Positions 6,371 to 55,082 are shown, counted from the first letter of the stretch. The stretch is 64,000 nt of DNA from Lingula anatina (GCA_051362555.1 CM120644.1:8936954-9000953), one strand, 5' to 3'. Made by a program: numbers and translations. Notes: generated by a model from the letters alone, not told the origin.

Positions 6371-7924
6371 TATAAGTTTCGAACTATTTTCCTTGTCTTA
6401 AAACCAATTACAACGACGCTAATTATTCGGAAAACTGTTTAGAATTTTGTCAATTGTATTAATATAAACAAAAAGTACGATTAATAAAAATAAGGCGTAT
6501 CTTAACAGCACCATAGAAATGAACCACCGCATAACTCACCGCTCACACCCTTCATTCTAGACGTCAACCGGAACCTACGTACATGTATCCTGAAGAGGTG
6601 CAGTATTAAATTACGTAATTACAAAGCTCAAGTCCTTAACTGTTCAAAATTGCCTTATTTTATTCAAATTCAACGCCATGTTAGGCGAAATTTGCAAATT
6701 GGTGAGTGCTACATTTGGGCCTTGATTTTGGTCCCTCTTTTTACGGGCCAAGTTCGTTACTATAGCAATGTGATTGACATTTTAGTCACAGATCACCCGA
6801 AAAGTCTCGGTATGGACCCTTAGAAAAAAAGGAATAGTTAAAGCTGAAATGTCAAATCCTTCATGGAATTAACAAGCAAATTACGGCTACTTTTGTTACG
6901 ATATTTTGTGTAGTCAGGACCCCAAAATTTCAGATGGCAATATCTATTTTTTCAAAAAATTTTAGAATTTTTTAAAAGTGTGCTTTCAATATCTTTTGTA
7001 ACAGTTATCAAACACAGGAAATATTGGTTGATTCTGCCGACCTCCACCTTGCCACATTTTGGCTGATTTGGTTGATTCTCTCGTGAAATGGCACTTAACT
7101 AATTAACTCATATCAATAACTAAAAGATAAATCATTTAATTGCTATCATATTCGGACCCATGTCATAACTATCCTGAAAATTCTATCAAAATCCCTCCAT
7201 AACTTTTTTCCATTATGTTGCTAACAGACAAACTGAATAATAATCAACTAATAACCAACCATTTAATAGTCATTTAATGGACCACCACTAAATCTTACCG
7301 TTTGTCACTAGGCCCTCTCGCAACAGTTCCTGAAATTTTCATCTAATATTACCTTAACGTCAATAACTTACCCTTTGAGTAAGGTAAGAAAAATTTTGTA
7401 GTAGGCCTGTGAGAAAGTAATGGATCTGAATTCCTGCAGAAGGTCATGCCGCATCTTGTCCTCTTTATGAGATTCATTCATTTTTAAAAAAAGGTGCAGC
7501 CACGCAATATAAAATGAGCCCAAAACTCGACGATCCTGTTTTCACAACTAACTGCAGAGGTCTTAGTGGCGCCAGGGACCTCCTACCTCGGTACTGCCAT
7601 CGACAATATAAAATGCACCTATATTATGTAATATATGGGTGCTTCCAGTGGTAACAGGCTAAAGTAAATGAATACTGGTTTGCCGGTAGATTAAAAAGCT
7701 AAACATTTGGCCTTTTATTAATTTATTTATAATTATCTTTGACACAATTTATTAACTAAATTAATAATTGACTAAATCTGTAAATATAATATGTTATGTG
7801 AATTTGTATATTTTAAAATCATGGTTTCTGTTTGGAAGAAACACATTTTTCTAAATGTACATGTCACATCCTTATAAGAACCTGCCGAATTTACTCAGTC
7901 ACGTACGTAGTATAGACCATTCTA

Positions 7925-8139
7925 GACCCCATTCCCACAGATTTTAGATCACTCAATCCCTGTGGGGAGCCTCACTAGATTACTGTCAGCTTAGCCGGCT
8001 TAAATGTCTGTCCCGCCTACTAAAAGCTGTAAGGGGGTAATTAACTACCGTGCGCGCTCGGCTGATAGCAATTTAGCGTGAACCCCAAGGGAGTTAGGTC
8101 GATCTAGATGGATCGATGTAAATCCATGGGAATGCACTC
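7925..8139 (+). mobile_element. MITE family A (~215 bp, Tourist/Harbinger-like), copy 1
   Basis: cta|GACCCCATTCCCACAGATTT...ATGGGAATGCACTC|cta. Internal sequence shared with 24473-24687, 33518-33725, 40876-41089 and a partial copy at ~20215-20320. Confidence 0.8.
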
Positions 8140-21597: not shown

Positions 21598-30170
<8,573 letters not shown>

Positions 30171-30624
30171 GGTGGCAGCCTGAAAGAATAAATACAGTGC
30201 ACATGTAGCTTTATGATAAGTAATTCGATGCAAATAAAATGGGCAAATCGTTGAAAATGAAATGAGAAATTACAGAATACAATCGGCTTATAACAATGAA
30301 GAAATTCTCTTGGTACTCTTGGGTGTACAATGTCACGCACTATTCCAGCTTAACTGCAGCAGTTTTTTATCTGCCACATAATGTTCAATGTCACACTCCC
30401 AGTCAAAATTATTCTCAGGAATTGCCGAAATAACCTTGTCTGGTTTTGTAACGTCGGCTAAAATTTAACGCGATAATTCAACGACTTTGAAAAGCGCAAA
30501 ACCAATTTGCAAGAGACTGTTATGCTATCAAATATACAAATATAAAATATATAGCAACTGGGTAGCCTGTTAACATTTATTTGACACGATAATCGACAAA
30601 AAAATAACCAAAACACACAGCCTA

Positions 30625-30918
30625 CCTCTAAAACGGAAACAATATGGATGCAAGTTTCACGCAGTGCATGATGGGTAAATAAAAATCAAATATTTTTTAA
30701 ATAATGATTAGAATACTCATATAGCATTCAGTTGAGATAATTCAGTTTTTCATTTATTTTTTATGATATGTACATGAAATATTTATAGAGACACACAATG
30801 TTACTAACTAAACCTAGATGTCGGCATGCGCACATTAAACTTCCGCCTTTTCGCCGACCGGTGATCGACAGTGTAACACGTGTGCACGTCTCCCCAACAT
30901 TTTTATCCACCGTTTAAG
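30625..30918. promoter_or_regulatory. Shared bidirectional promoter of NDUFS1 and EF1-beta, with a TCT/5'TOP-like initiator
   Basis: A probable non-coding NDUFS1 exon 1 ends at a minus-strand donor (GAG|GTAGGC) near 30625. A pyrimidine tract CTTCCGCCTTTTCG lies at 30840-30853, ~70 nt before the EF1-beta ATG. TSS positions are inferred. Confidence 0.6.
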
Positions 30919-32457
30919 ATGGGTTTCGGTGATCTGAAGAGTGCTGCTGGCCTCAAGGTCCTTAATGAGTTCCTGGCCGACAGAAGTTACATACAAGGGT
31001 AAGTGTCAACGGCTTATCAATGAGTTTCTGTCGATTTATACCAGTGCCATAATGAACGTGTTATCATTGTACGTTGTGGTGTAGTGTAGACGTAGTACAC
31101 TGTAAACTGCGTTTGCAAACTGCCCTTGTAGACAGTGAAGAGCGCAATACAAATATATAGCTCAATTGAATACTACTACGTATCTGATATTCGAGCAAAA
31201 ATTCCGCTGAAAATTCTCTGCGTTTTGATATTTTATTATGCAGGCTCGATTTTACGATTGCCCATGTGTAAGTTGTGACAAGTTTGTTCTGTGTGTTGTT
31301 AGCACCATGTCAATATTGAATTTTTTGTTTTAACGTTAACAAGTTTATTGTAAGTAATATTTCATAATAGAGAAATGCTTGTGAAAATTGACACCATGAG
31401 TACAGTAGTTTTAGAATAGTTTTCATTTCTTTTACCAAACAAAGATGTCCGCACAGTATACTTTGCAATTAGTTACAGGAAGTTGCATCACAAATCATAA
31501 CTTGAATAATTAGTGGTCACTATGCATTGTAATACGTTTAGCTTTACCATTTTGGGTAAGAGCATAAGTTCATTACAAATATACTTGCACTAGTAAACAT
31601 AATAGTTTTAATTATTATTATAAATATTATCATTGTCAATTGTGTTTTTAGGTTCACCCCCTCCCAGGCTGATGTAGCCGTGTTCTCCGCCCTGTCTGGA
31701 CCACCGTCAGCTGACCTGTGCCACGCCCTGCGCTGGTACAACCACATCAAGTCATTTGGCAAGGCCACAGCCAGGTACAGTTAACATGGACTGAATAATC
31801 TCACTCTCTCACATACCAGTATTCACTTACAGAAGAAATTTTTATGATAATAAAATGTGAATTCTCAACTAAAGAGATGCTTGTGTTCTGTTTTGAAAGA
31901 TGTCAAAAGTGTTATCTGTTGACCTGCCACAAGCTGTAGCCTAAGAAGGCAGCCATGTCAGTGTGATAGGGCAACATACTTGTACAAATTTGTCAGACTG
32001 TTCCTACAAACTGACAACTTTAGAATTAAGTCGTATTTAGTCTGTTTTACTTCTGTTAACATAGTTTGATCTTTAAAAGCCTAATTTATTTATCAAATAT
32101 ATATTTCAGTTTTCCTGGACAAAAGAAGGATGTCAGTGCCTATGGCCCAGCTGGCGGTGCCTCAGCTGCTGATGACGATGATGATGATGACGATGATATT
32201 GACCTGTTTGGGTCTGATGAGGAAGATGACGCTGCTGCTGCTGAATTGAAAGAGAAAAGATTAGCTGAATACGCTGCTAAGAAGGCTGCAAGTAAGAAAT
32301 CAATTATGCCCTGCCTAAGAAATTAATTTTGCCCTGCCTAAGTAGCACGGACAGGAATATTGTTTTGTTATGATCAAGAATGTCAGCAGATTATATGTGC
32401 TGCTAATACACACACACACACACACACACACAGATTTATTTGAGCTTTATCTCATAT

Positions 32458-32488
<31 letters not shown>

Positions 32489-34057
32489 TCAATCTTTCAG
32501 AGCCAGGCCCGATTGCCAAGAGTTCAATCGTTTTGGACATTAAACCCTGGGACGATGAAACAGATCTTGGTGAAATGGAGAAGCTAGTCCGTGGCATTGA
32601 GACTGACGGTCTAGTGTGGGGAGCATGTGAGTAGAGGACATGTCTTTACTTATTGCCTGAATACATAGTGCTGAGTCTGCTTGTTAGGTTAACAAAAGTC
32701 TGGGTCGGTCAAGTTAAAGCACATTATACCAGAGCTGCCAATATACAGAAAGAGTTTTCTGTTATTTTTTAAATTAATTGATTTATTTGCAGTGGATATA
32801 TTACTACCAGTGGGTTTGTCCATCATAAAAAAACAAACAGCAATAAGGATCATTTTCAAAGGTTTCAAGTTTAAAAAAAACTATAAAAATTCATCATACA
32901 CTACAAATAACTGAATGGTGAATTCCAAATTATTTTCCAGCCAAACAAGTCCCAGTGGGCTATGGTATCAAAAAGCTGCAGATCATGTGTGTTGTAGAAG
33001 ATGCCAAGGTAAGCCACAGTAGGGGTGGGAAGTGGGGAGGGGGTAGCCCCCTCATCCTCCTAAATCCTACAGTTAGCTAGCTTATAAGTCTATGAGCGCA
33101 TTCTCAACGAATTAAGCCAGGCTTTACAAAGCCGGTGACCTAAAAATGGCGGACGTACATGAAAGAAAAACCGCCTAATCTTTTAATAGTCTCTCCGCCT
33201 CTCACACGCCTCCCCACATGTCGTCCCTGTGGGGTACAGTAATTAAATCTCGGCTCCGAACATTAATATTTCCGTGAATATCTCTGGTGATATTATCTCC
33301 GTAGATAGTCGATTCATTGCTGCTCTACGGGCCAAATTATTCCTTTTTCGTCTCTGTTTTCAAATATAATAGAACAGAAGAGCTTTTTTCCTTCGATCGC
33401 CTTCAGCCGCCATGCTTTCTTCACCACCAGTTTAACTGATGAGCATGCGCACTTAATATTTCTCAGGTAGCTTCCGCATGGCGAACGGAGACTTAATTCG
33501 TTGAGAATGCGCTCTATGACTGCATTCCCACAGATTTTAGATCAATCTATCCCCGTGAGGAGTCTCACTGGATTACTGTCAGCTTAGCAGGCTTAAATGT
33601 CTATCCCACCTACTAAAAGGGGGTAAATAACTTCCGTGCGCACTCGGCTGACAGCAATTTAGCATGAACCCCCAGGGAGTTAGGTTGATCCAGATGGTTC
33701 AATCTAAATATGTGGGAATGCAGTCTAAGGTATATAGGATGCTAATTGAGTATGTGTTAAAGAAAGAAGTTTGTGGAAGATTTAACAGGTATTGTTGAAA
33801 AAATAAACTATTGAAATTTATGGAAGTTTTACCATTTTTTGTGTTTAAGGCTGATTGTACTTATAAACAAGCTTTTATGTAGCATTATTTAATTTTTTTT
33901 TTTAAATTGCGTCAAGATTTGTTTGAATAGCATCTTTATTGCTGTAAACAAGTATTTATGTTGTTTTTAGGTTGGCACAGATTTTCTGGAGGAAAGTATT
34001 ACAGCATTTGAAGATTTCGTCCAATCTGTAGACGTTGTAGCTTTCAATAAGATCTAA
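30919..34057 (+). CDS. EEF1B2: Translation elongation factor 1-beta, 6 coding exons
   Basis: Exons 30919-30998, 31652-31774, 32110-32291, 32501-32626, 32941-33008, 33971-34057. Translates MGFGDLKS...HALRWYNHI...[11 protein letters not shown]...[17 protein letters not shown]...[10 protein letters not shown]...[18 protein letters not shown] at 34228. Confidence 0.97.
33094..33514. mobile_element. MITE with 23-bp TIRs and TAT TSD in EF1-beta intron 5
   Basis: tat|GAGCGCATTCTCAACGAATTAAG...CTTAATTCGTTGAGAATGCGCTC|tat. Absent from the paralogous intron copy at ~37610, which shows the empty site. Confidence 0.9.
33518..33725 (+). mobile_element. MITE family A, copy 3
   Basis: GACTGCATTCCCACA...TGTGGGAATGCAGTC perfect TIRs, directly adjacent to the previous MITE. 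Absent from the duplicate intron. Confidence 0.85.
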
Positions 34058-35946
34058 GCATGGTTGTTATTTTGACCATACCAATATTGCCAATGAACTG
34101 TGTGGACCACAAATTTATATATAGACCTTCAGCAATTTTTAAATGAAGAAGATTTTCATACATTGTTGAGTGACTTAGACAAATTTGAATTCTTGTTTTT
34201 GACACTATTTCATGCAACTTAACTCTCAATAAATATTTGACAGGACTTATGAGATTGTCAGGTTGTGTTGTTTTGTGCTAGAAAGCAAAACTTTAATTTC
34301 AAAAAGGGTTCCCAGCTCACTCGCAATCAGAAATGGCAAAACTTGGAAGATCCCCAACCCCCCCCCTCCCCCGGCCCCCCTTTTTTCCCTGTCATGTTTC
34401 ATTAAAGTCCTCAAATCATTGAAATAAAGGAATTTTGTTTGCTCAGACTTTTTGGCTTGTGTCTATACCGAACGACAATTTTTTGGGGGGCAATTTTAAA
34501 GCCTGCAGTAGCTAGCTCTTTACATTTAAATGGGTTGGAATTATGATTCTGAAATTTTAAGATTAATTGAGGTGAAAATCAGGGAAGTTTGTTCTCATGA
34601 AATGCTGGGAACCCAGTTATAGAGTTTGCATTTGCACTTTAATGATTTAGCATCTTCGGTTTTTAAAAAATTATAGAGAAGGCCATCAAGCAGTTCCTTT
34701 ATGCTTTAAGGGGGAGTGAACAAACTAATTAATATAAAAAATTTCAAACCAGATCTTGAAACTGCTTTGATCTACCCCTGTATGAAATGAATCATTTCAA
34801 CAAAGCTCTACAAAAAGAAATGATACATTTTTTGTGTCCGTAAACGTGGTTTATATGTGCTAAGAACAGGTGTACCATCCAACTAAATGAAATGTTTAAC
34901 CACATAGAGGTCTTTCTCAGTTATCCAGAACCATACATTTTAATAATCATCCAAGACCATTACTGTTGTGAAAATTTGCTGTGTTGTAATTGGTCAGAGA
35001 GCTTGACAGTATAATGAAAAAGGTTTTAATTTCTAAACTAAATTATTTGAATAGTGGAAACTGATCAAAGTCACCACAAAACTTAATTTCGATTGAACGT
35101 GCCAATATAAAAGCTTACAGAATAATTTTAAGTATTTATCACCTGATATATTATTGATCTCATAACTTAAAATTTTAACAAGGACAATATTGTGCCCCCC
35201 TCAGTTATGCTGGTCACAGATGGATTATGTATCTACTAGATTATGTGAACGATGACACCATGCTGTCTTTAGATGGATCATGCAGTTTATTTTGACTCAT
35301 TTTCCAATAAGTCTAAGTAAAACTCATAATCTAAAAAAATAATAAAAAAGCAGCACTGTTGTAAATTTTTTCATTATGTTACCTACTATGCAAGTATAAA
35401 ACAAACAAAAAAGTCAACTTTATCTCTGCAATAATTCCAGGCTAGACAAACATTGATACAAGAATAGTAAAATGGTGGCAACTTTTACAGGGATAAATTG
35501 TACCTTTTACAGAGTGAAAAGCAGCTTTTGTTTGAAAGTGAAAGCAAAATAAGGGTTCTCACAGCTATGTGCCACCATGAATGTTAACTACAAAGGCTGT
35601 TGCGAAAATACAGTCCAGTGATGATTCAGTCTGATAGCTAGGCCGATACTGTAATTACTCATCAATTTCCAAGAACGTGAATTGATTATTTCCAAAAAAA
35701 GTCTTGTTATGTAAGATGCTAATGTAAAGGTTTTAATAAGTTAATCTTGATCAGTTTTATGTGTGAATAAATAAAATGTTTTAATTTGGGAAAATAAAAT
35801 ATTAAAGTAAGTGAGGTGTTTTAAATTTTAAGTCATAACCGTAAGTGACAAATGTTTATTAGTGAATCAGCTGAAGGCTAGACATCAGAAGCAGGAGAGG
35901 CGAGAGTACACAAACTTCACGAGATACTAAGCACTGTATTGTCAAG

Positions 35947-36409
35947 ATGATGACGTTTTGCTTCATTGCAGCTTTGCTCCTCTTTGCTGGTTTGCCAGGT
36001 AGGTTAGAATAAAAGCAAACAATTAAACAAACAAGCAAACACCTTTGGGACAGAAAAATGGATTGAATATGATAAAAAAAAAGATGTCTTTATAGTTATA
36101 GGGCCTAAGCAAAAAATTACAGAGATAGAAATATAGTACAGAAACATCTGGATACTTTTGTGTTTACCCAGAACTTACGTTTCAAATTATTCATCTGAAG
36201 CAATTTATTAGGGATAATCAAAGCTACATTTTTATCTTTTTCAAATATTAAAAATGTTTTTCTTCTTCTACAAAGCACCCACGGCAAGTCTCGGGTGCCT
36301 GTCAAACTCTAACTGTGTCAGCTATTGTTCTGGTTGTATATACGGCGGCACCCCAAAATGCGCCCTTAAAACCACCGGCACATGCCAATGCCTTGGGTGC
36401 GGACCATAG
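35947..36409 (+). CDS. Secreted 8-cysteine defensin/myticin-like peptide, paralog A (61 aa precursor)
   Basis: Exon 35947-35998 (phase-1 donor CCAG|GTAGGT) joins exon 36276-36409 in frame: MMTFCFIAALLLFAGLPAPTASLGCLSNSNCVSYCSGCIYGGTPKCALKTTGTCQCLGCGP*. Probable 3'UTR intron 36422-37088 and AATAAA near 37163. All splice signals are conserved in paralog B. Confidence 0.85.
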
Positions 36410-37867
36410 CCACATGGTCTGGTGAGTTGTTCAATTACCTGCATATCACAGCTGAATTGCTCTTAAAGTCATAGATCAAAACAATATTTTAGTTCTTTTT
36501 TTTACCTTTGAACATTTTGCCAAATGTTACCATTTTTGATCTAGATCTTAATCTTTCTGATTCCATTGTGGATGTGATTAACATAATTGATAGGTATAAT
36601 AAATTCTTAAATATAACAGAGAAACTGCCAAAAGCAGTAGCTACTAGCATTGAGTACAATATTTCAAAGATTGGGGGAGTAAAGTAGAAGTGCCGGAGTG
36701 CAATATAATATAATACAGATATTCTGTAGTAGAGTATATATCTAATTTATTTCTCAGCACTTGAGAAAGTTGTGGTTTTCCACAAATCCCAGAAAATAGG
36801 TCATACGTCTCTCAATATTGCTTTTTAAATTATGATATTCTTACTTAGCATCAAATTATGTCTGGCGGTAATTATCTGCAAAATTTGCCGTTTTCAGCTC
36901 TCAACTTAGTCATTTTCAATCCTTATTAATTGTAATATTTAACTCCTTTGAAGCATAATATTTAAATCTTAATTCAAAACGATAGTGAAGCGCATTGAGG
37001 TTTTCAATGAAATATGTCATATAAGAATAAATTATCATCATTACTACTAATACTACCACCACTACTATTATTATCATCTATATTTCAGATGTAGAACAAT
37101 AAGACTTCCAAGCAAAACAGAAGACATGCAGATTTTCGTATTTTTATCAACAGCTTGGAAAAAATAAATTAAAAGATGAAAACGCATTTCAAATTGATTT
37201 TGACTGATTTCCTCTCTGACTGCCTAAGGCAATTATTTTACCCTGAGAAGAATAATAACAGTAGTTATTCACTAAATTGGTAAAGGTATTTGTTGTCAGA
37301 AATAATAAGACAGAATAATTGTTTGCAACAGGTGGTTTGTAGGCCTGAAGGGCTGGGTGTTCTTTTAACATGGCACGTTGATAAATGATGATGATGATTA
37401 TTATTAAACTTTACGAGGACTGTTTTTTTTTCCCCCAAAACAAGTTTGTCTAAACAGTCCTTCTTCGAACCACACGCGTGCTTGACCTTGCAGATCATGT
37501 GTGTCGTAGAAGATGCCAAAGTACGATACAGTAGAGGTTGGAAGTGGGGAGGGAAAGGGGAGGGGGTAGCCCCCTTATCCTCCTGAATCCTACAGTTAGC
37601 TAGCTTATAAGCCTGTGGTATGTAGGATGCTAATTAAGTATGTATTAAAGAAAGAAGTTTGTGGGAGATTAAATGGGCAAAATTGTTGAATATGTAAAGT
37701 GGCACTTATTAATGAATTAACTGCTTTCCTATTCTCTGTGTTCTTATGCTGATTGTATTTTATTAATAAGCTTTTATAAAGTTTTATTTCTTATATTTTT
37801 ATCGGTTTCATGAATTTCTTTAAGTAGAAATGTTAAGGCTTCAAACAAATATTTACTTTGTTTTTAG

Positions 37868-37954
37868 GTTGGCACAGATTTTCTGGAGGAAAGTATTACA
37901 GCATTTGAAGATTTCGTTCAATCTGTAGACGTTGTAGCTTTCAATAAGATCTAA
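37868..37954 (+). other. Duplicated EF1-beta terminal exon (candidate alternative last exon or pseudo-exon)
   Basis: 86 of 87 nt identical to 33971-34057 (one synonymous GTC>GTT change). Intact TTTTTAG acceptor, stop codon and AATAAA at 38125. The preceding exon-5 copy at ~37490-37520 is partial with a weakened donor. Confidence 0.85.
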
Positions 37955-39756
37955 GCATGGTTGTTATTGTGACCAAACCAATATTGCCAATAAACTGTGG
38001 ACCACAACTTTATATATATAAACCTTCAGCAATTTCTAAATGAAGAAGATTTTCGTATATTGTTGAGTGACTTAAACAAATTTGAATTCTTGTTTTTGAC
38101 CATAATTCATGTGACTTAATTCTCAATAAATATTTGTCAGAACTTTTATGAAATGGCTAAATCAATTTGTGTTGTTTTCTGCTAGAGGTCAAAATTAACA
38201 ATTTTGAGTTCCCTGCTCACTTATAGTCCAGGAAATTGGTGAAAAATTGTGCATTTTTTACCTACAAGCATGAAATTTGGCACACTTATGGACAATAAAA
38301 TTCTAAGCAAATTTGGATATATGGGCATGTCTGAAAATTCCAAAATGGCCGTCAAATCCAATATGGCCACCAAAATACCTTTTCAAATTAAAACTTCAAG
38401 TACATAGTCTTCTAATGACTTAAAATATCATATAAAGGTTAGAAAACACCATGGTATGAATCCTTCAGGTGTATTAAATCCAAAATGGCCGCCAAAAGTA
38501 AAAAAAGCAGACCATTTATTCAAGATATCCATTTGAATGGGGAATTCATCAAGCACTTAAAACTACAAGCATAAAATTTGGCAGGTTTGTGGAAAATGAA
38601 ATTCTGAGCAAGTTTGGATGTATGGGCATATCCGAAAATTTAAAAATGGCCTTCAAATCCAAGATGGCCTCCAAAAATACGGCTTCTAATTAAAACTTCA
38701 AGTATATAGTCTTTTAAGGGTGTAAATATCATACCAAGGTTAAAAAACACTACGGTATGAATTCAGAATCAACATTTGCTTTTTTAGGTGTATTAAATCC
38801 AAAATGGCCGCCAATAGTAAAAAGCACTCTACTAATCCAAGATATCCAGCAGAGTGGTTAATTCATCAAAAACTACAAGCATGGCATTTGGTACAGTTGT
38901 AAAACAGGATTCCAAGCACTTTTGGATGTATGAGCATGTCTAAAAATTTCAATATATGGCCCCCAAATCCAATATAGCCGACACAAATACCTGTTCAAAT
39001 TAAAACTTCAAGTATATATAATCCTATAATAACTTAAGATAACATTTTATGGTTAGACAAGACTATGGTATGCATGAAGTATCAATATTTGATTCTTTAA
39101 GTGTATAGAAATCCAAAATGGCCTCCAAAAATAAGAAAAACAGGCCACTCACAGAATGAAGCATCAAGCATGAAAATTGGCTCAATTGTACAGAACAGGA
39201 TTCTAAGCAATTTGTTATATAGGGACATGTCTGAATATTCTAATATGGCCACTAAAACCCTTTTAAAGTAAAAAAAGACTACTATATAATCTGACTGACA
39301 ACAGTCTTTACTCTTTTTTGGTTTTTCGCTCCTTTAGTTACATTTAGACCCAAATGACCATAAAAAATGGAACAGGACTCCTTTTGGTCTAGTTGTGACA
39401 CCACATGCAGCAATTCTATAAATGTCAAAGATATGAAAATGTCAAGGTATTTTCACAAATAAGTTTCAAATTAACGAAAGTTATTTTATCAGGTAAGTGT
39501 TGCACATTTTATGGGCGGTCAACCTTTTACTTTAGTAAATGGACAATATCTCAACAGAGGATAACAGCTAGCTACACCGAAATTTCTACTTATTTGGTTA
39601 AATAATTTTCATTCATTAATGTGTGCCTAGCTTTACTAGTAGTTGTGCTTCCCTCAGCTTTCCCAGTATTTCCTTAAAGCTAAAGCTTCTACATGTAATC
39701 CACTTTCCCCAACAAAATACCAAGAGGCATTGGTCGTTTTTAACACCAGAAAGCAT

Positions 39757-40104
39757 CAGTTTACATGCATGAGGGTCAATAGGAATATGAAAGTGTGGTA
39801 GGGCATAGTAGTAGATGTAGGTTACTAGCTATAGTGTGAACCCTTATAGGACCAGTCTTCCAATGCTTCTGACTCAGTTTACATGCATGACGGTCCATAG
39901 GAATATGAAAGTGTGGTAGGGCATAGTAGTAGATGTAGGTTACTAGCTATAGTATGAACCCTTATGGGACCAGTCTTCCAATGCTTCTGACTCAGTTTAC
40001 ATGCATGACGGTCCATAGGAAAATGAAAGTGTGGAAGGGCATATTAGTAGATGTAGGTTACTAGTGTGAACCCTTATAGCACCAGTCTTCCAATGCTTCT
40101 GACT
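39757..40104. repeat. ~117-bp tandem repeat x3 inside the Academ-like element
   Basis: CAGTTTACATGCATGA...CCAGTCTTCCAATGCTTCTGACT units start at ~39757, 39874 and 39992. Confidence 0.9.
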
Positions 40105-40875
40105 CCCCTCACCACAGTTATCAACTGCACACATAACTACAAACAGATGTGGTAGGAGCTACCTGGTAGATTTTGTAAGCTGGGTAAGTGAATACACCTC
40201 ATGGCTTCATTCTGGATTGTCCCACAGAGACAATGATGCCGGAAATCTCATGAATTTTTACCTTTCAAAGTCCATATTGCACTAATTTCTTGGTGTAATC
40301 CTCAGAATACATCGTTTTTTGAAGTTTTGTATGTATTAACTGTCTGGAGGATTTTAATTCTTTTATTTTCATGTTCAGTTTTTTGAAAGTATAAGTTTGT
40401 AACTAAACAAGTTGCCAAATGATCAAATGAAAACCAAAGTTTGGTGCCTATCAGTGCTTCTTTTTTAGTGCACGAAGTGTGAAGTCTGCAATGCAACTCT
40501 TGGATACAGCACGTATCAACACCTGCCCTCTGTTTGGGGTACAGGTATTTCTTTGCTCATAAATTTTCACTAAATTCTCGGTAGCCATTACTGCGAATGT
40601 ACTAAAGCCAATTTTTTAAATAAGAAGCTTTTCTAATTTACTTTTGAAGCACAAGATAACATCAGAACATTATGGAGTGCAAACGTGCTCCGCTTTTAGT
40701 ACTTTACCAATGAAAAACACCAAATTGTTGAGACCTGTATGTTTGATTAGCTGTCATTTTTGTTATATTTATGAGCATTTGATGAAGCGGCATGCACTGA
40801 TCTAGCTGAAGAATCATAACCAACAGACAAAATTGGTACACCCCAAGTTTTTTATATTTGCCTCTTTAAGGCTAA

Positions 40876-41089
40876 CGCCCCATTTCCATAGATTAGATCG
40901 ACCTACTTTAGATCGACCTAACTCCCTGGGGGTTCACACTAAATAGCTGTCAGCCGGGCGGACACGAAAGTTAATTACCACTTGCAGCTTGTAGTAGGCG
41001 GGGACGGACACTTAAGGGGGATTATCTGACAGTAATCTGGTGAGACTCCCCGCGGTGATAGATCGATCTAAAGTTGTGGGAATAGACCC
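40876..41089 (-). mobile_element. MITE family A, copy 4 (nested in the Academ-like element)
   Basis: taa|CGCCCCATTTCCATAGA...TGTGGGAATAGACCC|taa with TSD TAA. Closely similar to 24473-24687. Confidence 0.8.
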
Positions 41090-42745
41090 TAAGTTATTCT
41101 GGTGTTTCTTTCACATTTTATGGATTTTGCACGATACTTTTTTTTCTTAGAAAGGGGGAGTCACTCATGAGTGCCATATAAGAAGATTGCTAACTGGGAA
41201 TTGATCTAAATGAGAATCCAGAGCAAAAAGTCAAACTTCTTATGTTGGTTTATCAAAAGAAGGACTGTTTTCAGTACATAATAAATGTATCATGCTTGAT
41301 GGTTTTTTAAAAACTCTGTAGAATAGTTCCTGCACAGGTAGGAATATGCTGATTACACAGGTAGTTTGCAAAGCCCACATGCCTATTCACGAGTGATTAC
41401 AATTCAATAGTTGTGGTCTGCTGACTTTTGGAGACCATTTAAGTGGCAGATACTGATACTTCATTCATACAATGGTATTTTCTAACCATTAAATGATATT
41501 TTTATAAAAGACTATACAAATAACTTTCACCCTGAAAGGGTATTTTGGGGGCAATATTGAAATTGGCTGCCATATTGGAATTTTCAGACATGCCCCTATA
41601 TCCAACGTTGCTTAGAATCATGTTCTACATAACTGTGCCAATTTTTATGCTTGTAATTGTAAGTGCTTGATGATTTTACAAAACTGCTGCATATTTTGCG
41701 TAAGTAAACTGCTTATTTTACTTTTGGAGGCCATTTTGGAAATCTATACACCTGTAGAAGCGGATATTGATAATTCATTCATAGCATGATATTTTCCAGC
41801 TATAAAATGATATTCTAAACCATTTTAGGACTATATATTAGATGTTTTAATTTAAAAGAGTATTTGTGGCGGCCATATTGGATTTGGCGACCATACTGGA
41901 ATTTTCAGACATGCCCATATATCCAAAAAAGCTTAGAATTCCATTATCTACAACTGTGGCAAATTTCATGCTTGTAGGTAAAAAACGCACAATTCACCCT
42001 TTTTTCTGCACCAATTTCTTGGACTATTAGAAATGGAAAAACCTGAAAGATGCTGGTCAAAGATGAATCATGCAACTGCGAGAATATATGAAATATGACA
42101 GGATTCTGTCTTTAGTTGGAGCATGCAGTTTATTTTGACTCTATTTTCCAATAAATTTAGGTAAAACTCATAACCTTAAATAAAAAGTAGTACTGTAATA
42201 AATGTTTTCAATGGGTTATTATGTAGTTAATAAAACAAAAAGTAATCTTTATGTTTGTAATAATTTCTGGCTAGACAAATACTGATACATGAGCATATCA
42301 AATTATTTGCAACTTTTTCAGCAGCTTTTGGTACAAACTGAACGCAAAATAGGGGTTCTCACATCAATGGATATGAACTTCAAAGGCTTTTGCATCAAAA
42401 CGGCCCAAGGAATGACTCAGTCTGATAGCTAGGCCGATATTGTAATTAGTCGTTAATTTCCAACAACGTGAATTGATAATTTTCTCAAAAAACGTCATAT
42501 TATTAATATGTAAAATGCTTATGTAAAGGTTTTAATAAATTCATCATGATCAGTTTTATATGTGAATAAATATAGTGATGTTATTTGGAAAAAATATAAT
42601 ATTAAATCAAGTGAGGTGTTTAAAATTTAAGTCATAACCGTAGGCGACAAATGTTTATTAGTGAATCAGCTGAACGCTAGTCATCAGAAACAGGAGACAC
42701 CAGAGTAGACAATCTTCACAAGATACTAAGCACTGTATTGTCAAG

Positions 42746-43245
42746 ATGATGAAGTTTTGCTTCATTGCAGCTTTGCTCCTCTTTGCAGGCTTGCCAGGTA
42801 GGTTAGAGTAACAGCGAACAATAAAACAAACAAACAAACAAACAGCTTTGAGACAGAGAAACGATTGAATATGATAAAAAGGATGTCATTATAATTACAA
42901 GAAGCGCAAATTACAGAGGTTGAAAAAGGGTACAGAAACACCTGGATACTTTTGTGTTTGCCCAAGGAATATAAGTACTTACAAGTGATTAATTTGAAGC
43001 AATTTATTGGGGATAGCCTAATCAAAGGTATGCTATATTTTTTATCTTTCCCAAATAAATAAATGAATAAATAAATGTCATTATTTTTCTTCTTCTGCAA
43101 AGCACCCACGACGAGTAGTGGGTGCAAAACACATTCTGACTGTACCAGCTCCTGTTCTCGTTGTACACCAGCAGGCGTATTCGGCGGCACTCCATACTGC
43201 GTCCTTAAAACCACCGGAATATGTCAATGCCTGGGATGCCAATGA
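42746..43245 (+). CDS. Secreted 8-cysteine defensin/myticin-like peptide, paralog B (64 aa precursor)
   Basis: Exons 42746-42797 and 43103-43245: MMKFCFIAALLLFAGLPAPTTSSGCKTHSDCTSSCSRCTPAGVFGGTPYCVLKTTGICQCLGCQ*. Probable 3'UTR intron 43257-43582 and AATAAA near 43665. Confidence 0.85.
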
Positions 43246-44906
43246 TAGGCCTACTGGTGAGTGGTTGAATTAGCTGCATATCGCAGGGAAGTTACTGAGA
43301 CAAGTTCTTGTTAATGTTTGATTAGTTTGCCAAGTGTGGCCATTTTTGGCCTGGACCGTAATCTTGTTAAAGGCATTATGGTTGTGATTTACATAATTAC
43401 GTACAATAAATTAAAACAGCGAAGCTGACAAAAGCTGTAGAGTAGCTTCAAAGTTTGGAGGAGTGAAGTAGAGGTGCCGTAGGTATTGCAGTGCTTTAAA
43501 GAAACACATGCAGTTACTTGATTTATTAGAGAGATATAAACAAGTGATAACTCAGCAAAGCTGACAAATATTTTTATTTCAGATGTGATAAACAAGACTT
43601 CCAAGCAAAACAGACGACACGCAAATTTTCAAATTTTCATATTTAGTTAAACAGCTTGGAGCAAAATAAAGTATGAAAATTTATTTATAACTGATTTTGA
43701 CTGAATTCCTCTTTGATTGTCCTAGGACAATAATTTTACCCTGAACAGAATAATAACATTAATTGTTCGGTAAATGGAAACAAGTTTTTTTTTGTTGAAA
43801 TAAATAACTATAATTATTACTGTTTGACTCAGGATTTGGTTGGCTTGTAGACCAAATAACGATCGCCAAATTTAACCACATTTTGCATTCAGATTGGACC
43901 TTTTTGTGATCAAGACCGGTCCATAGATGGTAGATTGAAATCTAATGTATGTATGACGTAGTTACCTGTAAATGCATTATTCAGTCTCAGTGTCAAGAAA
44001 TACTCATCTTCTTTACTAGATTCCAAAGGAAAAACTTTTTTGTAGTATTGAAGTGTTTTGGGTCACGCCCAAAATTATTTGTTGTAACTTAAATTATCGA
44101 TCTTGAAATAATAAAATAAATTGGGTATATAGGGGTCGCTTGTAAAATGCCATCAAATTGGAGAGTGGGCGAATGCATAATACCTTTATTTTGTTTTTAC
44201 AGTCTAAATTTATGCAATTCATTTGTTCTCATACAATGTTTGACAACCTAGTTTGAGAGTTTGCATATATTATAATGAATAAGCATTACTTTCATTTTTC
44301 TGTTTTTTAATAAGTGGAATGCTAAAGTTCATAAAATTTTAGGCTACATCACCTCAAAGAGTTTTTTTTATTTGAAGTGAAAGTATAAACTAAAAGAAAT
44401 ATGCAAAAAATGATGTATGTGAATCAAAATATGAGACCAGTCCTTCAAATGAATTAACATTTGTGAACACAGTGCTCTGTTGAATTACGACAACAACCTT
44501 GCGTGTTTATATTTGGAATCATGGAAGACAGCCCTCTCTTAGGTATTAATCTACTACTTCTCTATATAAACAAATATTTCACTCTATGTGGACAGAATAA
44601 AATTACACCTCTTTGGAATGCCTGCAAAAAGTATTTGGAAAAGCAAAAGAACATAGATTTTCAATCTTTATACCTACTGGATCCTAAAAAGGGAGATAAT
44701 CTAAGAAAAAAAATGGGAAAGTATAGAAAAAATATTGATATGAATAGAAAAGAACATTAATCGTAGCCTAGGCCTACTAAGATTCTTTAATTAAAAAAAA
44801 ACCTACGTGTATTATTAATCAACATCTGTAAGAACTTTGTTTGCAGTGTGTGAAGGTGTATTTGTCTCTTATTGTGTTGTAAATGCCCTGTATTAATTTT
44901 CGTGAA

Positions 44907-47318: not shown

Positions 47319-50182
47319 ATGGCACGTAACGCGGCATGGCGCCGTACGATCAGCGACTTAGTGAGCTGGAGGCAGGACCAGGCCCTGAACGCAACAATCT
47401 ACATCCTACGTGAGATGGGGCCAACTGGGTTTCTTCTTAAAGAGGAGGGGGAGAGCAAGAAATTCAAGGTGGGGCTTCTGGATTTTTAAGTTATCAATGT
47501 GTGGAAGAAAATCTATTTGTTAAACTATTGGGAAATGCCAATTTCAGTTGACATTTACATGACAAGACTTTACAACAATTATAGAAATAAAAAAAAGAAC
47601 TTCAGAAATAATTTGTTAATGATATTGTCCATTATATTATAACAGGCTTTCCTGGGTGACCCCCACAAATGTACCTGCTCAACTTTTATGAAGGATAAAG
47701 ACCTGTGTAAACACATCTGCTGGTTATTGCTCAAGAAATTCAGGATACCAAGAACTAACCCAGGTGAGTGCTGTCAACCTATATGTTATACATGTATGTA
47801 AGGGATATCTGTACGAGGTTCCACATGTGATAGTTTACATTATAAAGTACATTGTAACTGGTTGACAGTTGCATCTGGAAATTCAGACAGAAGAGCTTTA
47901 TAGTACAGTACTTAATGGATGCATTTCAACACTGTGTAAATTTGGTTTATTTTATTACTGAACTATAACATATAGTCCTAGTGATAAGATGGTTAAGGGT
48001 TTATTTTTGGGAGCATTGAAATATGTGATAGTGTTAAATTAAAATAGAATGGTGTTTTGGATGTGAAACAATTTACAACATTATATTTGGTTGGGATGGT
48101 AGACACTGATACATTTAAATGAGTAAGACATGTTTTTGTTTAATCATTTTTATTTATTTATTTTATTATCAATTAATTAATTAATTTGCTCCTGCAGTCA
48201 CGTGGCAGATGGGTCTTGTAGAACGAGAGATAAATGAACTCCTACGAGGTTTGATGGCACACCAAGATCCTCGCCGAGGACCCCCTGCGAAGAAGGTTAC
48301 AGCGACAACAACTGTAGTTGATGGTCGGCCTGTTTTAGAGCAGAGAGAGATCGGCAAGGAGGATGTGTGCCCTATATGTCAGGAGGAACTGTTAGCTAAA
48401 CATGAGCCTGTCACCTACTGCAAGTATGTACTCCGATAGGATATAATGCCAAGCTGAAAAGTGAAATTAGTTAGTAATACGGCAATGACTTGATCTTTTT
48501 ATGGGGAAAAATTGTGAGTTTTACAGCTTCTGTATTTTTTTAAAGTCATAAATTCTTAAAATGACAACTTTCCCATTGAGTGGTAGCAGTAAAAAGGAAA
48601 GCAGGCTACCCAGTAGTTCTTTTGTATCCAGCCCAAGCACCACAAATGCTGTATAGGATACAATACAATTTTAAATGATTCTGAAATTGTGTATAAGAAA
48701 GATTATAAATGTTCACATTGAACAGATCAGGACATAACCTTATTAACTGTGCAATGATAATTATTCATATTTTAATGATTGTCAGCACAAAGAGTCTTTT
48801 TTTTCTCTCAAATGATGAGGAAGGAAATAGAATATCAGCACATCATTATTCTAATATTTGGTACATAAATTATGTTGTTGTTTTTTTTTTCATTTCTGTC
48901 ATTTTTCACTTCATTTTCAAAAAATAAATAAAACCCAAGAGTTTAATATTGAAAAAAGAAAAATGTGCTATTTTTAAGAATATCACCAAATGTTGTAGTA
49001 ATAATGTAATCAGTTGTCTCATGTATCATGTACTGAAAATTATTTACCTTATGTTCTCATATTCCCAGGTTTGGATGTGCCAATAGTATTCACATCAAAT
49101 GTATGAAGGTATGGGCAGAGCATCAAAAATCATCTGGAGAAACCGTCATCAAATGCCCATTCTGTCGTGAAGATTTTGGTCCATTCGATCTCCTGAGACA
49201 GGAGTATGCCAATAGCTCAGTGCGGCAGACGAGAGCCGAAAGACTTGACCTTCACCTTGGGTCAGTGTGTGGCGGCTGCAGGGTGTGTCCTATACAGGGG
49301 AAGTGTTACAAGTCAGTATTTGTTTGTCATACTTTTTATTTCTTTAAATTGACCTTAAAATGTATCTTGAATTGAACAAAGTCTTTATCTTTTTCATTTC
49401 AGCCTTGTAATATTTACAGTGGCTACATAATTGTGATTTTTTATTTGTGTAGTTGATCAGTGATATTTAGTTTGTGATTAAGAGAGGCACTGTAAGATAT
49501 TGAACAGATAGTAGAGATACAGACATGCTGAAAACTTTTCAGAATGGCCGGACATTTGGACCAGCAGTAATGAAAAATTTGCCGGACCGAATGCATTTTT
49601 GTCGCACCGAAAATGACTCTATTCGTTTGAGACAGATACTACCAGTACGATTAGGGTAGCTTACTTTGTTTGTGAATGTGATAGGTTTGAAATGGAAGGG
49701 AAAAAACACTTTGGGTTTTATATAATTTTATTAGTGACGTATGTCGAATGATAACTGTAAATTCAAAATAGCGGCTCTTAAAACTCTTGTCGGTCCTTTG
49801 GACCGACCAAGTCCAATTTTTTACCGGTCCAGACAAATTTTCCCGGTCATGACCGACCGGACCGAGAGTTTCAGCATGTCTGGAGATACATGTGTACTAT
49901 TATGACTACGTAATTGTTTTTTTATGAGAAATGTGTGTTACAACCAAATAATATCCATGCACACCTCCCATTTCAGCTGCACAGTCTGTGTGACCTATTA
50001 CCTGTGTCAGGAGTGTTTTAACACACAGATCCACACTGAACATTCCTTCCAGTTTAGACAGGTAGGTGGTTCTTATCTGTCCCAGGCAGTAATTATATTT
50101 TTAATTACTATTTTGGCTGCATAGAGATAAACTGGTATTTTCAAGCAACTTTTAATTTTTTCAGTGGATCATAGCTCTTTAA

Positions 50183-50222
<40 letters not shown>

Positions 50223-51908
50223 CTTTTTTGTATTCCTGGTTGGAACGTTATGAATGCATAAAGCAAGCCAGGCATCAAGTAGTTTTTGTGAGAAGCAACA
50301 CTGTAGGCTCTCAAGATGAGAAAGGGAAAAGTCTTAAAAGTTAAATGTACAAAATATGTTTATGATCAGAAACCCACACAGAGATGGCGTCCTGCACAGA
50401 GAGGGTCTGGGACGGCACTACCTAGTGCTGTGGTGAACAATTTGATGAACAGGGAGATCAGGGAGGAAGATTACGATATGTTACTACAGCTAGACAGGTA
50501 CTGGCACACCTAACACAATATACACAATGGTTGGTTTAACCAATGTTTGAAACCTGCTCCAATATAGCTATAACTAACAAACACGTAAATATCTACTACA
50601 CAGTACATGAGACAGTCTTATATTTTATTTAGTCTATTACATGCAAGTCTAAAACATTGCCATTTTGTCCACTTAGTGCGTTATGATAGTAATACTGCAA
50701 AACTGCGCCAACATACCTTTAATTCATGCTAGAACATGATCCTTTTCTCAGAGCCAGGTCCAGTGAGTTTTTTCTGCCATGAATATCTCAGCAGTTGTAG
50801 AAATGATATTTCAACATGTTAAAACTACAATCACTTATCAATTTGTCTATTTTTCTGTTTCTAGTACTGCAGCCAACCAAGTAAGCAACATCCCAGAGGA
50901 GGTGGTGAAAGGTTTCCCCACAGAACGTGTCAGGGACGGCAGTAAGCTGCTGGCACCTGGGGAGCAGTGCAGGGTTTGTCTGAGAGCTTTCCAGGCTGGA
51001 CAGCAGATCAGGAGATTACCTGTCTGTAAACATAAGGTGTGTATTCCTCTAAATGTAAGTGTGAAACTGAGGTTTTATGAAGATTACCCTGAGTTTGTCA
51101 GTGTGTTAGCTGTTATATAATCATAAGAGGACAATGCACTGTAGATGCTGTATATTTTAGTTTCATACACATGTAGACTGTATAGACAATACACTGTATA
51201 TATTGTTTATTCCAGTTTCACATAGACTGTATAGACATGCACTATAAATATTGTATATTTCAGTTTCACATAGATTGTATAGACAACACCTTATACTAGT
51301 AGATGTTGTTTATTCCAGTTTCACATAGACTGTATAGACAACTGGCTGATCCACCAGCGCCCTACATGTCCCATAGATGGTCAGGTGGTGTGGAGCCCTC
51401 TCATGGCAGAGATGGAAGAGCAGGAGAAAGAAAGGTGAGTGCTTCCTGAGAGAGAGAGAGAGAGAGAGAGGGGTGGGGAGGGAGGGAGAGAGAGAATTTG
51501 AGCTAATGCACACAGCTGTGACAGTATGATTATGTAATGTCACATTTATGCCATTATGTTTATATGGTGAATTGGTGGAAAAGTGAAAAAAAAGACAGAA
51601 ATGCACATAATAACATTTAAACAAAAACTTCTGTTTATAATAAGTAGTAGGATATTAGCAGGAATAAAATGTATAAGAATAACATACACAAGAGTAACAA
51701 TAGATGCATTTGTACTTTCTGTTCCAGAAAACGTCAGAGGAAGAAAGAGGAGGCTAATGCTAGAGCTGAGCAACAGGAGCAGCAAGCCAATGGTCTTGTC
51801 CTGGAAATCCCAGGAGTAGGCTTAATTAGGTAGGCCAACTGTAACATACAGCTTCTACTGACCTAAACTGGTTTGATCTTAATAACATCTTGTTCTCTAT
51901 TCAGGGAT

Positions 51909-51942
<34 letters not shown>

Positions 51943-54900
51943 GACTATTGGTGGATTTCCTGTTCTTTGGGAGCCAAAAATATCATTGGCCTAGTCAGCC
52001 CCCTGTACCCCAGACCATATTTCCTAAGTTTTTTTTTTTTTTTTTTTTTACTAAATGGCAGTCTCATTCCTGTATATTGTAATAAGGGTGGTGTCTCCCT
52101 AGCAGTACCACTGTTTTCCCTTGATTGAAACAGGTAGCTGTGGTTGAACAAAAAAAAACTGAGCAATGTCTATAGAGTCATGCTGTGCAGCAGCCAGCTG
52201 GATTGCACATTGGCACTGCTGATATAATTCAAGCCTACATAATGGGATTTTGACTGCTGGAAACCAGTGAACAGAGCCAAGGCGTCCTGTGGTTAAACTA
52301 ATCAAACTGATTGGCAGTCAGCCTAAGGAACTTGTCTAGGTGGTAAATTCCTGGAAATAGCTGTCTGTAGGCCTGTTATTCCTGGGAGATTGACTCAAAT
52401 TTGGCTGTTTGGAATGGAGCGAGGGCTTTTTTTTCACATATTGGACAAGTAAATCATTTGTTAAGATACATGTATTGAGCTATTTTTTATTGAGCAACAG
52501 CCCTGGCTGTGAACAGTCCTGTTTCTGCACAGCATTATTCCAGCTTGTGGTTTTATTAAACAGCCGTGAGTCCGTGTTCAAGACTATTGCTTCTGTGCCA
52601 TTAGCTTGATTACCTTTAGAACTGTGTGACCACTACCTGGCTATGGATTATTTTAACATTATTTATAAGGACTATCTGATCTTGGGAATTTCCCAAGGAA
52701 TGTTGTTTAGATGGTAGACAAGACAAACTTTTGTCTGCTTCAGGCAAAGTGATGCATGTTTTGAAGTTGCTTTTTTTAGCCTTATTGTTTTTTCATATCT
52801 TGTGTTCTTAGTCAAAAGATGTACAAAATAGGAAATGTATGCTACAAGTACATTAATATTTATACTCAAGTAAGCACTAAATTTTTGTTTGTATATTATC
52901 TTTTTATTTTTAATATGATAAAAATGATAATGGATAAGTTGACAGCAAATTCATATTATTTTTATGTCTGTTATTGTAAGTATTCAGTCAAGTAATAACA
53001 GTTATTTATTTATTTCTAGGCGTGGTACCACTGGCTCATTGGGATCACTCAGTACAAATAAGAGTTCCAAGCCCAAAACGTCAGCCTACAACTCCATACC
53101 TCTGAACTTTGCTCTCACAGGAACTGGGCTGAATTCACCACAAAGGTGGGCTTTTTTTTTTATAATACTACTTCCAGGCCCGTAGCCAGCAATTTCAAAA
53201 GGGGGGTTCTTTTTCTGAAGAAGTGGACCTTTTTCCATAAAAACTTCATGTACCTAGATCAAATTTTACCCAGAGTGGACCTTTTCCCAGAAAAAGGGGC
53301 GGTTCTTTCTAACCCCCTGAACCGCCCTGGCTATGGGCCTGACTTCTAATAATTAAAACTTGATTCTTGTTATTATTATTACCATTATTGTTTTGAAGAT
53401 CATAATGCTATCACTGCACATAATGTTTTAGTATGTTATTTTAACATACTTGAAATTTTATTTTTTGTAAAAGACATTTAAACATTGATTTTCGATTTCA
53501 AAGGTAGATTTTAAACTCATTGAGACCAAATTGTATGCAAATCTATTTGCAGTAAATCAGATATTTTTATATTCTCAGAGTTTGTAGACTGTCAGTAGAG
53601 TCATTCATGATTTACGCACTGGCTTGCTAATTGTAAATGACTTTGAATGTTAATATTTTCTCTATTCAGTGAACCTTCTAGTCCCAGTAGCGTCTCCAGT
53701 CCAACACAGCTGCTTAGTCGAGTCCGCATCAATCGTCGTCTTGTGCCAAGCGATGTTCGCACCCAACAAGTCACGCCCAGTGTTCCTTCCATCCCTCTTC
53801 CGCGAAACCTCAATAACAATGACGTAGGTGCAGCCGCAGCAATAAGTACGAACTCACCTGTAAATAGAGGCTGGAGACCTTCAAGCATCACAAGCTCTCC
53901 TGGAGCTGGAGGGAGGAAACCACCAAGCGGTAGAAATAGCAGTGGGGGTGTGCGAAACGAAAGTGGATTTGACAGCGGTATGTAGGTAATTGCTGGCTAT
54001 GTTTATAGATGTTGTGCTTCATCAATTTTTTTTATTTGTCTCAATTTGCGTAATCATAAAGGCTACAGTTTCCTCGATTGTCAGACCCAAAAAGTTGCAA
54101 GCTTAATCTATAAAGAAGATTGCTAACAAGAAGGTTTATTTAAACATGAAAGACTAATAAGCAGTTTCTGACATCTGTTTCGCCTGGAGTCACACTTTTG
54201 ACAATCCATAAAAATGTGACATCAAATAATAAATTAATCAGATCTTTTATTCAACAATGTACATGTAGTTATTGAAAAATGATATGATTGTGAAACCTGT
54301 CACACCTAACACAATAAAATGGTGCTTTATAGATATCCTGGTTTACAAACAAGTGCTTTCACAGAAGTTAGTGCACCACACATTCATATTTATTATTCTC
54401 TTTTCTACTCAATATTGCACTTCCCATTACAGACCCAGAGTCACAGAGAAGAAGCCGAATGAGGCAGAAAGCTGCCGCAGCTGCAGAAAAACGTGCTCGG
54501 AGCTCTAGCACCAGTGGCCAATCAAACAGGCCAGATTCTGGCGATTCAGGTCAAGGTCACACTGCTGATGACACCCTGGGACTTTATCTTGGACGAGTGC
54601 CATCCCCACACCAGGACTCGAGTCCATTGTCCAAACCACGAGCCCCAGCAGGTCGCCTCTTGCCTCTGTCACATGACAGAGCTATTACTCATTCCACCAG
54701 CAGAGGGCAGCAGGGTGCTTCAGAAGCCAGGACAGGACAGGACCTTACTGATTTGTATTTAGGTTTGGATCCCCCTATAGTGGATAGTGGCTCAATTGCT
54801 AATAACATTATGTCCGGTTTAACGGTTCCCAAGCAACGTTCAAATACCAAAGACAAACCAAGGACGGTACAAACACACGAACCTGATTTAGCAGGACTGT

Positions 54901-55082
54901 ACCTAGGTCTTGGTCCCCAGACGGCAGCAGCTACTGACTCTGAAACTACCACTAGGGGGCGGTTAAAGAGAGGTGGTGCCAATACAGGCCCAAACCCAAC
55001 TAATACAAGACAGCCATGCATTGATACTATTGAACTCACTGGTAATAGCCTAAGTGGGCTGGCTATTCATGATGACACATGA
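47319..55082 (+). CDS. ZSWIM2: E3 ubiquitin ligase ZSWIM2-like (SWIM, RING, ZZ, RING, disordered tail), 12 coding exons
   Basis: In-frame exons 47319-47468, 47646-47763, 48198-48423, 49069-49311, 49977-50061, 50370-50497, 50865-51036, 51319-51434, 51728-51829, 53020-53145, 53670-53977, 54433-55082. SWIM CTC..CKH, RING CPIC..CPFC, ZZ CGGC..CTVC..CQEC..H..H, second RING CRVC..CKHKFHIDC..CPID, and REIREEDYDMLLQLD. Confidence 0.92.
49520..49882. mobile_element. hAT-like MITE in a ZSWIM2 intron
   Basis: CAGACATGCTGAAA...TTTCAGCATGTCTG TIRs, GAGATA on both flanks (imperfect TSD), and subterminal CCGGAC/GACCG repeats. Confidence 0.65.
51135..51340 (+). repeat. ~48-55 bp x4 tandem repeat across a ZSWIM2 splice acceptor
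   Basis: YAG|TTTCA..TAGAYTGTATAGACA recurs with exon-start positions 51161, 51216, 51264 and 51319. Only the last continues the RING reading frame. Confidence 0.88.
53175..53341. mobile_element. Small hAT-like MITE
   Basis: CAGGCCCGTAGCCAG...CTGGCTATGGGCCTG TIRs. A related degenerate copy lies at ~59053-59238. Confidence 0.6.

Follow-up and report, generated by a model that had tools for sequence, protein, structure and literature searches.

The closest described counterparts of the peptides reported here are the mussel defensins MGD-1, MGD-2 and Mytilus edulis defensins A and B. In MGD-1 the eight cysteines are separated by 5-3-6-3-7-1-2 residues. The oyster defensins Cg-Defm and Cg-Defh are made as a signal peptide followed directly by an eight-cysteine mature peptide and are encoded by intron-split, multi-copy genes, and the mussel MGD2 precursor carries an anionic C-terminal pro-region (PMC3390580). 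In the available text of Tarr 2016 (PMC5116183), the CS-alpha-beta superfamily is defined by CxxxC and CxC motifs plus two more cysteines (reference C2, C3, C4, C6, C8 and C9). Among brachiopods, all four rows in a 390-entry lophotrochozoan antimicrobial-peptide library are big defensins, with none from Lingula (PMC10414684), and the available part of PMC7203481 mentions only big defensins in rhynchonelliform species. In the accessible literature on Lingula and brachiopods we found no report of Lingula CS-alpha-beta peptides, and Gerdol et al. 2018, a study of immunity in Lingula, may list them. Here we describe two spliced genes, A and B, in a 64,000-nt stretch of Lingula anatina DNA (GCA_051362555.1 CM120644.1:8936954-9000953; the window), whose products are probably secreted CS-alpha-beta host-defence peptides with four disulfides, cleaved around residue 21–23 and acting on a specific target rather than by charge-driven lysis.

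Both genes have the organization proposed in the original prediction, namely a 52-nt signal-peptide exon, a phase-1 intron and a mature-peptide exon, and the coordinates, splice sites and phases were confirmed in the sequence (Table 1). The coding span of gene A (35947–36409, +) gives a 61-residue precursor with the cysteine spacing 5-3-2-7-7-1-2, and that of gene B (42746–43245, +) a 64-residue precursor with 5-3-2-11-7-1-2, so that the spacing with an x7 or x11 loop was also read correctly. The two genes start alike: an ATG ATG in a shared context opens a coding stretch of 52 nt that ends at a CAG/GTAGGT donor. The acceptor in both is a pyrimidine tract followed by AAG, exon 2 keeps the frame in phase 1, and the stop codon comes one or two codons after the last cysteine. 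The N-terminus is hydrophobic in both precursors (best nine-residue hydropathy 3.07 in exon 1 of gene A), and the signal-peptide cleavage region is probably located in exon 2, because exon 1 comprises only 17 codons. The peptides encoded by exon 2 have a net charge of +2 each and are 64% identical. A second donor, CTG/GTGAGT, stands 11–12 nt past the stop codon in both genes, and gene A therefore has at least three exons. Without splicing, each ATG opens a reading frame of only 21 residues, which explains why the open reading frame track misses both genes, as had been claimed. A loose CS-alpha-beta regular expression matched three times in the window, at the two genes and at a stretch of low complexity (55551); the mean number of matches in 60 windows simulated with an order-2 Markov model was 0.067, and the maximum 1.

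Transcription was assessed in seven of nine raw RNA runs labelled as this species, 6–26% of each run being read. Reads derived from EF1-beta showed that Lingula material is present in runs X1, X4, X7 and X8. Gene A is transcribed at a low level from the plus strand in one run, X4, where 15 reads lie over its coding exons, 12 of them at an identity of at least 95%. In 30-nt bins, the depth is about 2 on exon 1 to about position 35998, zero in all eight bins of intron 1 (36026–36273; four bases are covered in the bin starting at 35995) and 2.8–7 on exon 2. The first mates of these reads map to the minus strand, which also holds for those from the exons of the plus-strand EF1-beta gene. Four reads break off at 36421, exactly at the second donor that is kept in gene B, and their mixed consensus matches 22 of 30 letters at 36758, more than at any other of the 3687 AG sites (19 at the runner-up); some X4 reads fall within the candidate intron that these two sites would bound. 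A second acceptor in the untranslated region (UTR) of gene A, at 37089, fits 6 of the 8 remaining consensus letters but was not established, as 49 of the 3687 AG sites are equal or better. A single-exon model starting from an in-frame ATG in the pyrimidine tract of intron 1 was rejected, since the RNA depth there is zero.

Both peptides contain the superfamily cysteines and occupy reference positions C2–C6, C8, C9 and C10, which is the mollusc/nematode eight-cysteine type in the available text of Tarr 2016 (PMC5116183). We compared their arrays with the 533-row supplementary sheet of that paper, whose mollusc/nematode section has 84 rows by our own count. The full Lingula array was found in 0 of the 533 rows. 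The gap before the fourth cysteine is 2 and that after it 7 (A) or 11 (B), compared with 4–6 and 3–5 in usual defensins; among the 84 mollusc/nematode rows, one has the extra cysteine after a gap of 2, together with C-x4-C, and none has a following gap of at least 7. The early fourth cysteine stressed in the original prediction is thus unusual among eight-cysteine defensins, but it is not unique, since C-x3-C-x2-C is present in four rows elsewhere in the sheet (two theromacins, a Daphnia expressed sequence tag and a millipede expressed sequence tag). MGD-1, cited in the original prediction, is the closest in array and shares with A a six-cysteine core of 5-3-10-7-1, which is identical in the M. 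edulis defensins A and B, and the terminal C-x-C-x2-C is common to the mussel defensins and both Lingula peptides. In the mussel peptides, however, the fourth cysteine lies six residues past the helix rather than two, and the loop of B is four residues longer than theirs. No sequence similarity to them was detectable, and their G-x-C before the fifth cysteine and GFGCP start are missing in the Lingula peptides.

The other families were weighed in the same manner. Lingula precursors lack the pro-region of MGD2, which had been taken as a mark of a new family, but the oyster Cg-Def precursors have the same layout (PMC3390580). The oyster array, 6-3-4-4-8-1-2, is unlike that of Lingula, and lipid II binding has been shown for Cg-Defs. 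Myticins and mytilins resemble A and B in having eight cysteines and a C-x-C-x2-C end. The charge of about +2 given in the original prediction was reproduced for both peptides but is not distinctive, myticins being similarly low at −2 to +4 (PMC7356231). Both families are set apart by their genes, which have four exons, one of them in the 5' UTR, and encode a long C-terminal extension that is absent from A and B, and by their arrays (4-3-4-4-8-1-2 for myticins and 3-3-4-11-1-1-2 for mytilins). Theromacins, which are macins, have a C-x3-C-x2-C-x7-C segment like that of Lingula, with a bond from that early cysteine to the last one, which is also proposed for A and B. Macins are nevertheless larger, with 10 cysteines (8–12 in the family), an N-loop of 14 residues and an additional C1–C7 bond that defines them, none of which is found in the Lingula peptides. 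The CQCLG of two theromacins was considered as a link and rejected, because the cysteine register differs. Identity with myticins, mytilins, macins or alpha-KTx toxins was rejected in each case on family features that A and B do not share. We conclude that A and B are likely a variant of the eight-cysteine invertebrate defensin type, with a probable role in host defence.

The predicted fold is compatible with this placement, the CS-alpha-beta fold being a single helix that packs against an antiparallel sheet of two strands. AlphaFold2 gave a helix over CxxxC (residues 10–16/17) and a C-terminal hairpin for both peptides, with a predicted local distance difference test score (pLDDT) of 67 and a predicted template modelling score (pTM) of 0.33 for A, and 72 and 0.45 for B. 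Among the 49 Foldseek matches listed for A, 33 are CS-alpha-beta peptides by title, 4 are uncertain and 12 unrelated, with MGD-1 (1fjn) at rank 10; among the 19 listed for B, seven are CS-alpha-beta peptides and the top four are scorpion toxins. The top ESM Atlas matches of both peptides are scorpion short-toxin clusters (0.84–0.85). The assignment of this putative fold rests mainly on the cysteine array and on the agreement among weak signals.

These matches bear on a possible channel-active, toxin-like role, as predator deterrent or neuromodulator, like that of eight-cysteine scorpion potassium-channel toxins. Maurotoxin, Pi4 and HsTx1 share with the Lingula genes a 5-3 start, a 1-2 end (5-3-5-4-4-1-2 in the maurotoxin type) and a phase-1 intron close to the site of signal cleavage, and in A a lysine precedes the fifth cysteine. 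The hairpin spacing, however, is 7 in Lingula and 4 in each of the four scorpion peptides with eight cysteines in the Tarr section, A does not match the four-residue toxin signature, and B lacks it. Phase-1 introns beside the signal peptide are a general feature of secreted proteins. Lingula is, to our knowledge, a filter feeder with no known venom. With a hairpin spacing of the defensin type, the toxin-like alternative of the original prediction has become the weaker one, and we consider it very unlikely.

Comparison of A with B indicated constraint on the peptides. Reading frames, splice pairs and all eight cysteines are intact in both genes after about 20% neutral divergence. Non-synonymous differences in exon 2 affect 0 of about 21 sites in the eight cysteine codons versus 19 of 75 elsewhere (Fisher p=0.010). 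The only coding indel is in-frame (12 nt), and intron 1 has seven indels, one of them a multiple of three. The ratio of non-synonymous to synonymous substitution rates (dN/dS) is 0.12 for the signal exon, on few codons, and neither exon shows any sign of a value above 1. DNA identity is 94% for the signal exon and 77% for the mature exon.

Several observations weigh against the assignment of A and B as CS-alpha-beta host-defence peptides. The host-defence activity itself is a prediction, and, according to the available text of Tarr 2016 (PMC5116183), the array alone cannot tell a toxin from an antimicrobial peptide. The C-x5-G-x-C gamma-core of the original prediction did not hold: P-x-C stands at reference C6 and G-x-C one cysteine later, a core that myticins also lack in the same available text. 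The missing GFGCP start likewise separates A and B from the oyster and M. galloprovincialis defensin rows. Foldseek returned no match at E 0.001 for either peptide (E at least 1.5 throughout). Of the CS-alpha-beta type proposed at the outset, the cysteines are in place, the helix and hairpin are predicted at modest confidence, and the structural matches are below significance. VIA-align gave Z up to 3.3 (A) and 3.9 (B), with CS-alpha-beta peptides mixed with PAN/apple and unrelated folds and PAN/apple domains heading the list for B; the ESM Atlas scores are below 0.9 and serve as a lead only, and the recognition score of B is below the tool threshold. Exon 2 has a dN/dS of 0.54 on 42 codons (0.74 without the cysteines), and its DNA is conserved no better than that of intron 1 (80%). 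In the RNA runs, the coding exons of gene A have no reads in six of the seven, of which X2, X5 and X6 are without an organism control. Exon 2 of gene B has about two reads' worth of coverage (mean depth 0.77 in X4 over 43049–43335), and exon 1 of gene B has no reads beyond 42761. No splice junction was called for either gene at the threshold of 3 reads with 2 starts, so the splice of gene A rests on coverage and not on a junction; the RNA-seq check proposed originally thus gave exon-shaped coverage of A with zero intron depth but no junction, with B barely covered. PAN/apple identity for B (Z 3.1–3.9) was rejected, as Z lies within noise and the domains are too long. PAN/apple domains are about twice the length of peptide B.

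The very low RNA depth, an exon 2 as diverged as the intron, the weak models and VIA-align lists headed by other folds would also suit duplicates that are in decay or hardly used, or another fold with a cysteine pattern that only resembles CS-alpha-beta. The intact frames, the retention of the cysteines and of both splice pairs, the low dN/dS of the signal exon and the exon-shaped coverage of A argue against this explanation, which we regard as highly improbable.

Homologue searches gave no relative of either peptide. No Pfam or NCBIfam family was found for A or B, the PDB sequence search gave no match for A, and the PDB matches for B and for the profile were dismissed as chance hits to a haemagglutinin and a deaminase (E > 0.3). 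In a search of 5.8 billion proteins there was no candidate at 23–76 residues, and 0 of 105 candidates at 82–2000 residues held. HMMER against 1.84 billion representatives returned 11 matches, all long proteins with 4–15 matched stretches, which were rejected; of the four inspected, one is a tandem-repeat open reading frame and three are repeat proteins, presumably with RCC1-like repeats. None of 80 pattern matches in JGI metagenomes was confirmed. Both genes are apparently unannotated in public protein sets, because the searched collection includes Lingula proteins and gave no match although a length of 61–64 residues is within its range. The suggestion of a possibly undescribed family stands in so far as no database homologue was found, but the peptides extend the known eight-cysteine defensin type with a modestly shifted spacing.

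We infer the secretion, disulfides, fold and host-defence function of A and B. After removal of the signal peptide at the position given above, with no pro-region, a mature peptide of about 40 residues would remain, with a calculated mass of about 3.7–4.3 kDa in oxidised form. Its cysteines may pair 1-5, 2-6, 3-7 and 4-8, as in MGD-1 and Cg-Def, which would link the helix of CxxxC with the strand of CxC. Release may occur from blood-cell-like or epithelial cells. At a charge of +2, binding of a specific microbial or host target would be likelier than membrane lysis, by analogy with oyster defensins on lipid II and with myticin C, which acts beyond killing. The same low charge could instead point to secreted CS-alpha-beta peptides of a non-immune kind, such as a receptor ligand, a gamete or shell-matrix peptide or an enzyme inhibitor. 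SP11 pollen ligands and brazzein, which use the fold, are among the weak structural matches, transcripts are rare in the RNA runs examined, and myticins of similar charge have been proposed for non-killing roles (PMC7356231). The array and precursor layout nevertheless fit antimicrobial defensins of other lophotrochozoans, and positive evidence for another role was absent; we consider a non-immune role clearly unlikely. A bolder reading, which we rate as rather unlikely, would make A and B founders of a brachiopod, possibly lophophorate-wide, CS-alpha-beta family, in which a macin-type fourth disulfide is placed on a short defensin scaffold, the usual motifs are lost and the peptides act on a specific receptor, channel or microbial target other than lipid II. 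If true, it would connect mollusc defensins structurally with macins and imply a new mode of action.

Table 1. Positions of the duplicated units and of the parts of genes A and B in the window.
Feature	Coordinates	Strand	Description
Duplicated unit copy 1	32977..37305	+	EF1-beta 3' end and gene A; self-BLAST blocks, Pfam EF1_GNE
Duplicated unit copy 2	37489..43803	+	Orphan EF1-beta 3' exons, inverted-repeat element, gene B; self-BLAST
Gene A coding exon 1	35947..35998	+	ATG 35947, 17 codons + 1 nt, hydrophobic signal-peptide core
Gene A intron 1	35999..36275	+	GT-AG, phase 1, 277 nt; donor CAG/GTAGGT
Gene A exon 2	36276..36421	+	Signal-peptide end, 8-cysteine peptide, stop 36407-36409, 12 nt 3' UTR
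Gene A probable 3'-UTR intron	36422..36757	+	Best candidate acceptor 36758
Gene B coding exon 1	42746..42797	+	ATG 42746, signal-peptide core; 49/52 nt same as A
Gene B intron 1	42798..43102	+	GT-AG, phase 1, 305 nt
Gene B exon 2	43103..43256	+	8-cysteine peptide, stop 43243-43245, second donor conserved after 43256

A and B are tandem paralogues downstream of an EF1-beta gene (Pfam), and the duplicated unit also takes in the 3' end of that gene, extending from its last exons through the peptide gene. The duplication is old, because the non-coding identity between the two copies is only 70–84%, and no third paralogue is present within the 64-kb window. Upstream of the genes are GATA motifs (35632 and 42423), AP-1-like sites and, for B only, one kappa-B-like site, but these are uninformative, because the entire upstream region is 84% identical and there was no control. 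Between the genes lie orphan EF1-beta exons (37489–38194, corresponding to 32977–34290). The terminal coding exon is the same as the parent at 86 of 87 nt, with one silent change, and identity is 77% in the adjoining intron and 89% in the 3' UTR, which suggests gene conversion or that the copy serves as an alternative terminal exon. At position 37918, the letter of the orphan copy is carried by at most 6 of 316 reads of X4 and by none of X1, X7 and X8. Copy 2 alone contains a 3.8-kb element (38220–42030) with inverted subterminal arrays of ~310-nt units, 72–83% complementary, and matching ends of 27 nt, which resembles a DNA transposon of the foldback or non-autonomous kind.

Elsewhere in the window, a dispersed repeat of 200–220 nt with internal inverted arms has four copies (7921–8139, 24472–24699, 33506–33726 and 40878–41093), all with deep coverage by RNA reads that match in part and stem from other loci, and tandem arrays are found at 28283–28912 (83 nt x 7.6) and 39756–40105 (118 nt x 3). 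A MINPP1 gene (13496–18563, +) has eight exon blocks at 87–100% identity to Lingula anatina MINPP1, the exon at 18117–18563 reaching 99%. By this match the host of both genes is L. anatina or a form very close to it, and thus belongs to the brachiopods and not to the molluscs. On the minus strand, a gene whose product has a molybdopterin oxidoreductase domain (22636–31000; Pfam), and which we take to be NDUFS1-like, appears head to head with EF1-beta (ATG near 30919). NDUFS1 and EEF1B2 are head to head in vertebrates. A multi-exon gene at 49037–55082 (+) has two RING-like exons and is presumably ZSWIM2-like.

The gain from these genes is incremental and does not amount to a new system. They represent small spliced genes of probable immune function that are apparently absent from public protein sets for the Lingula genome, and the two peptides, short enough to be synthesised and with a cysteine array not yet listed, lend themselves to structural and activity studies. 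They would bring the short eight-cysteine CS-alpha-beta type to Brachiopoda, and a gap of this kind is named in the available text of Tarr 2016 (PMC5116183) as an obstacle to testing defensin orthology across invertebrates.

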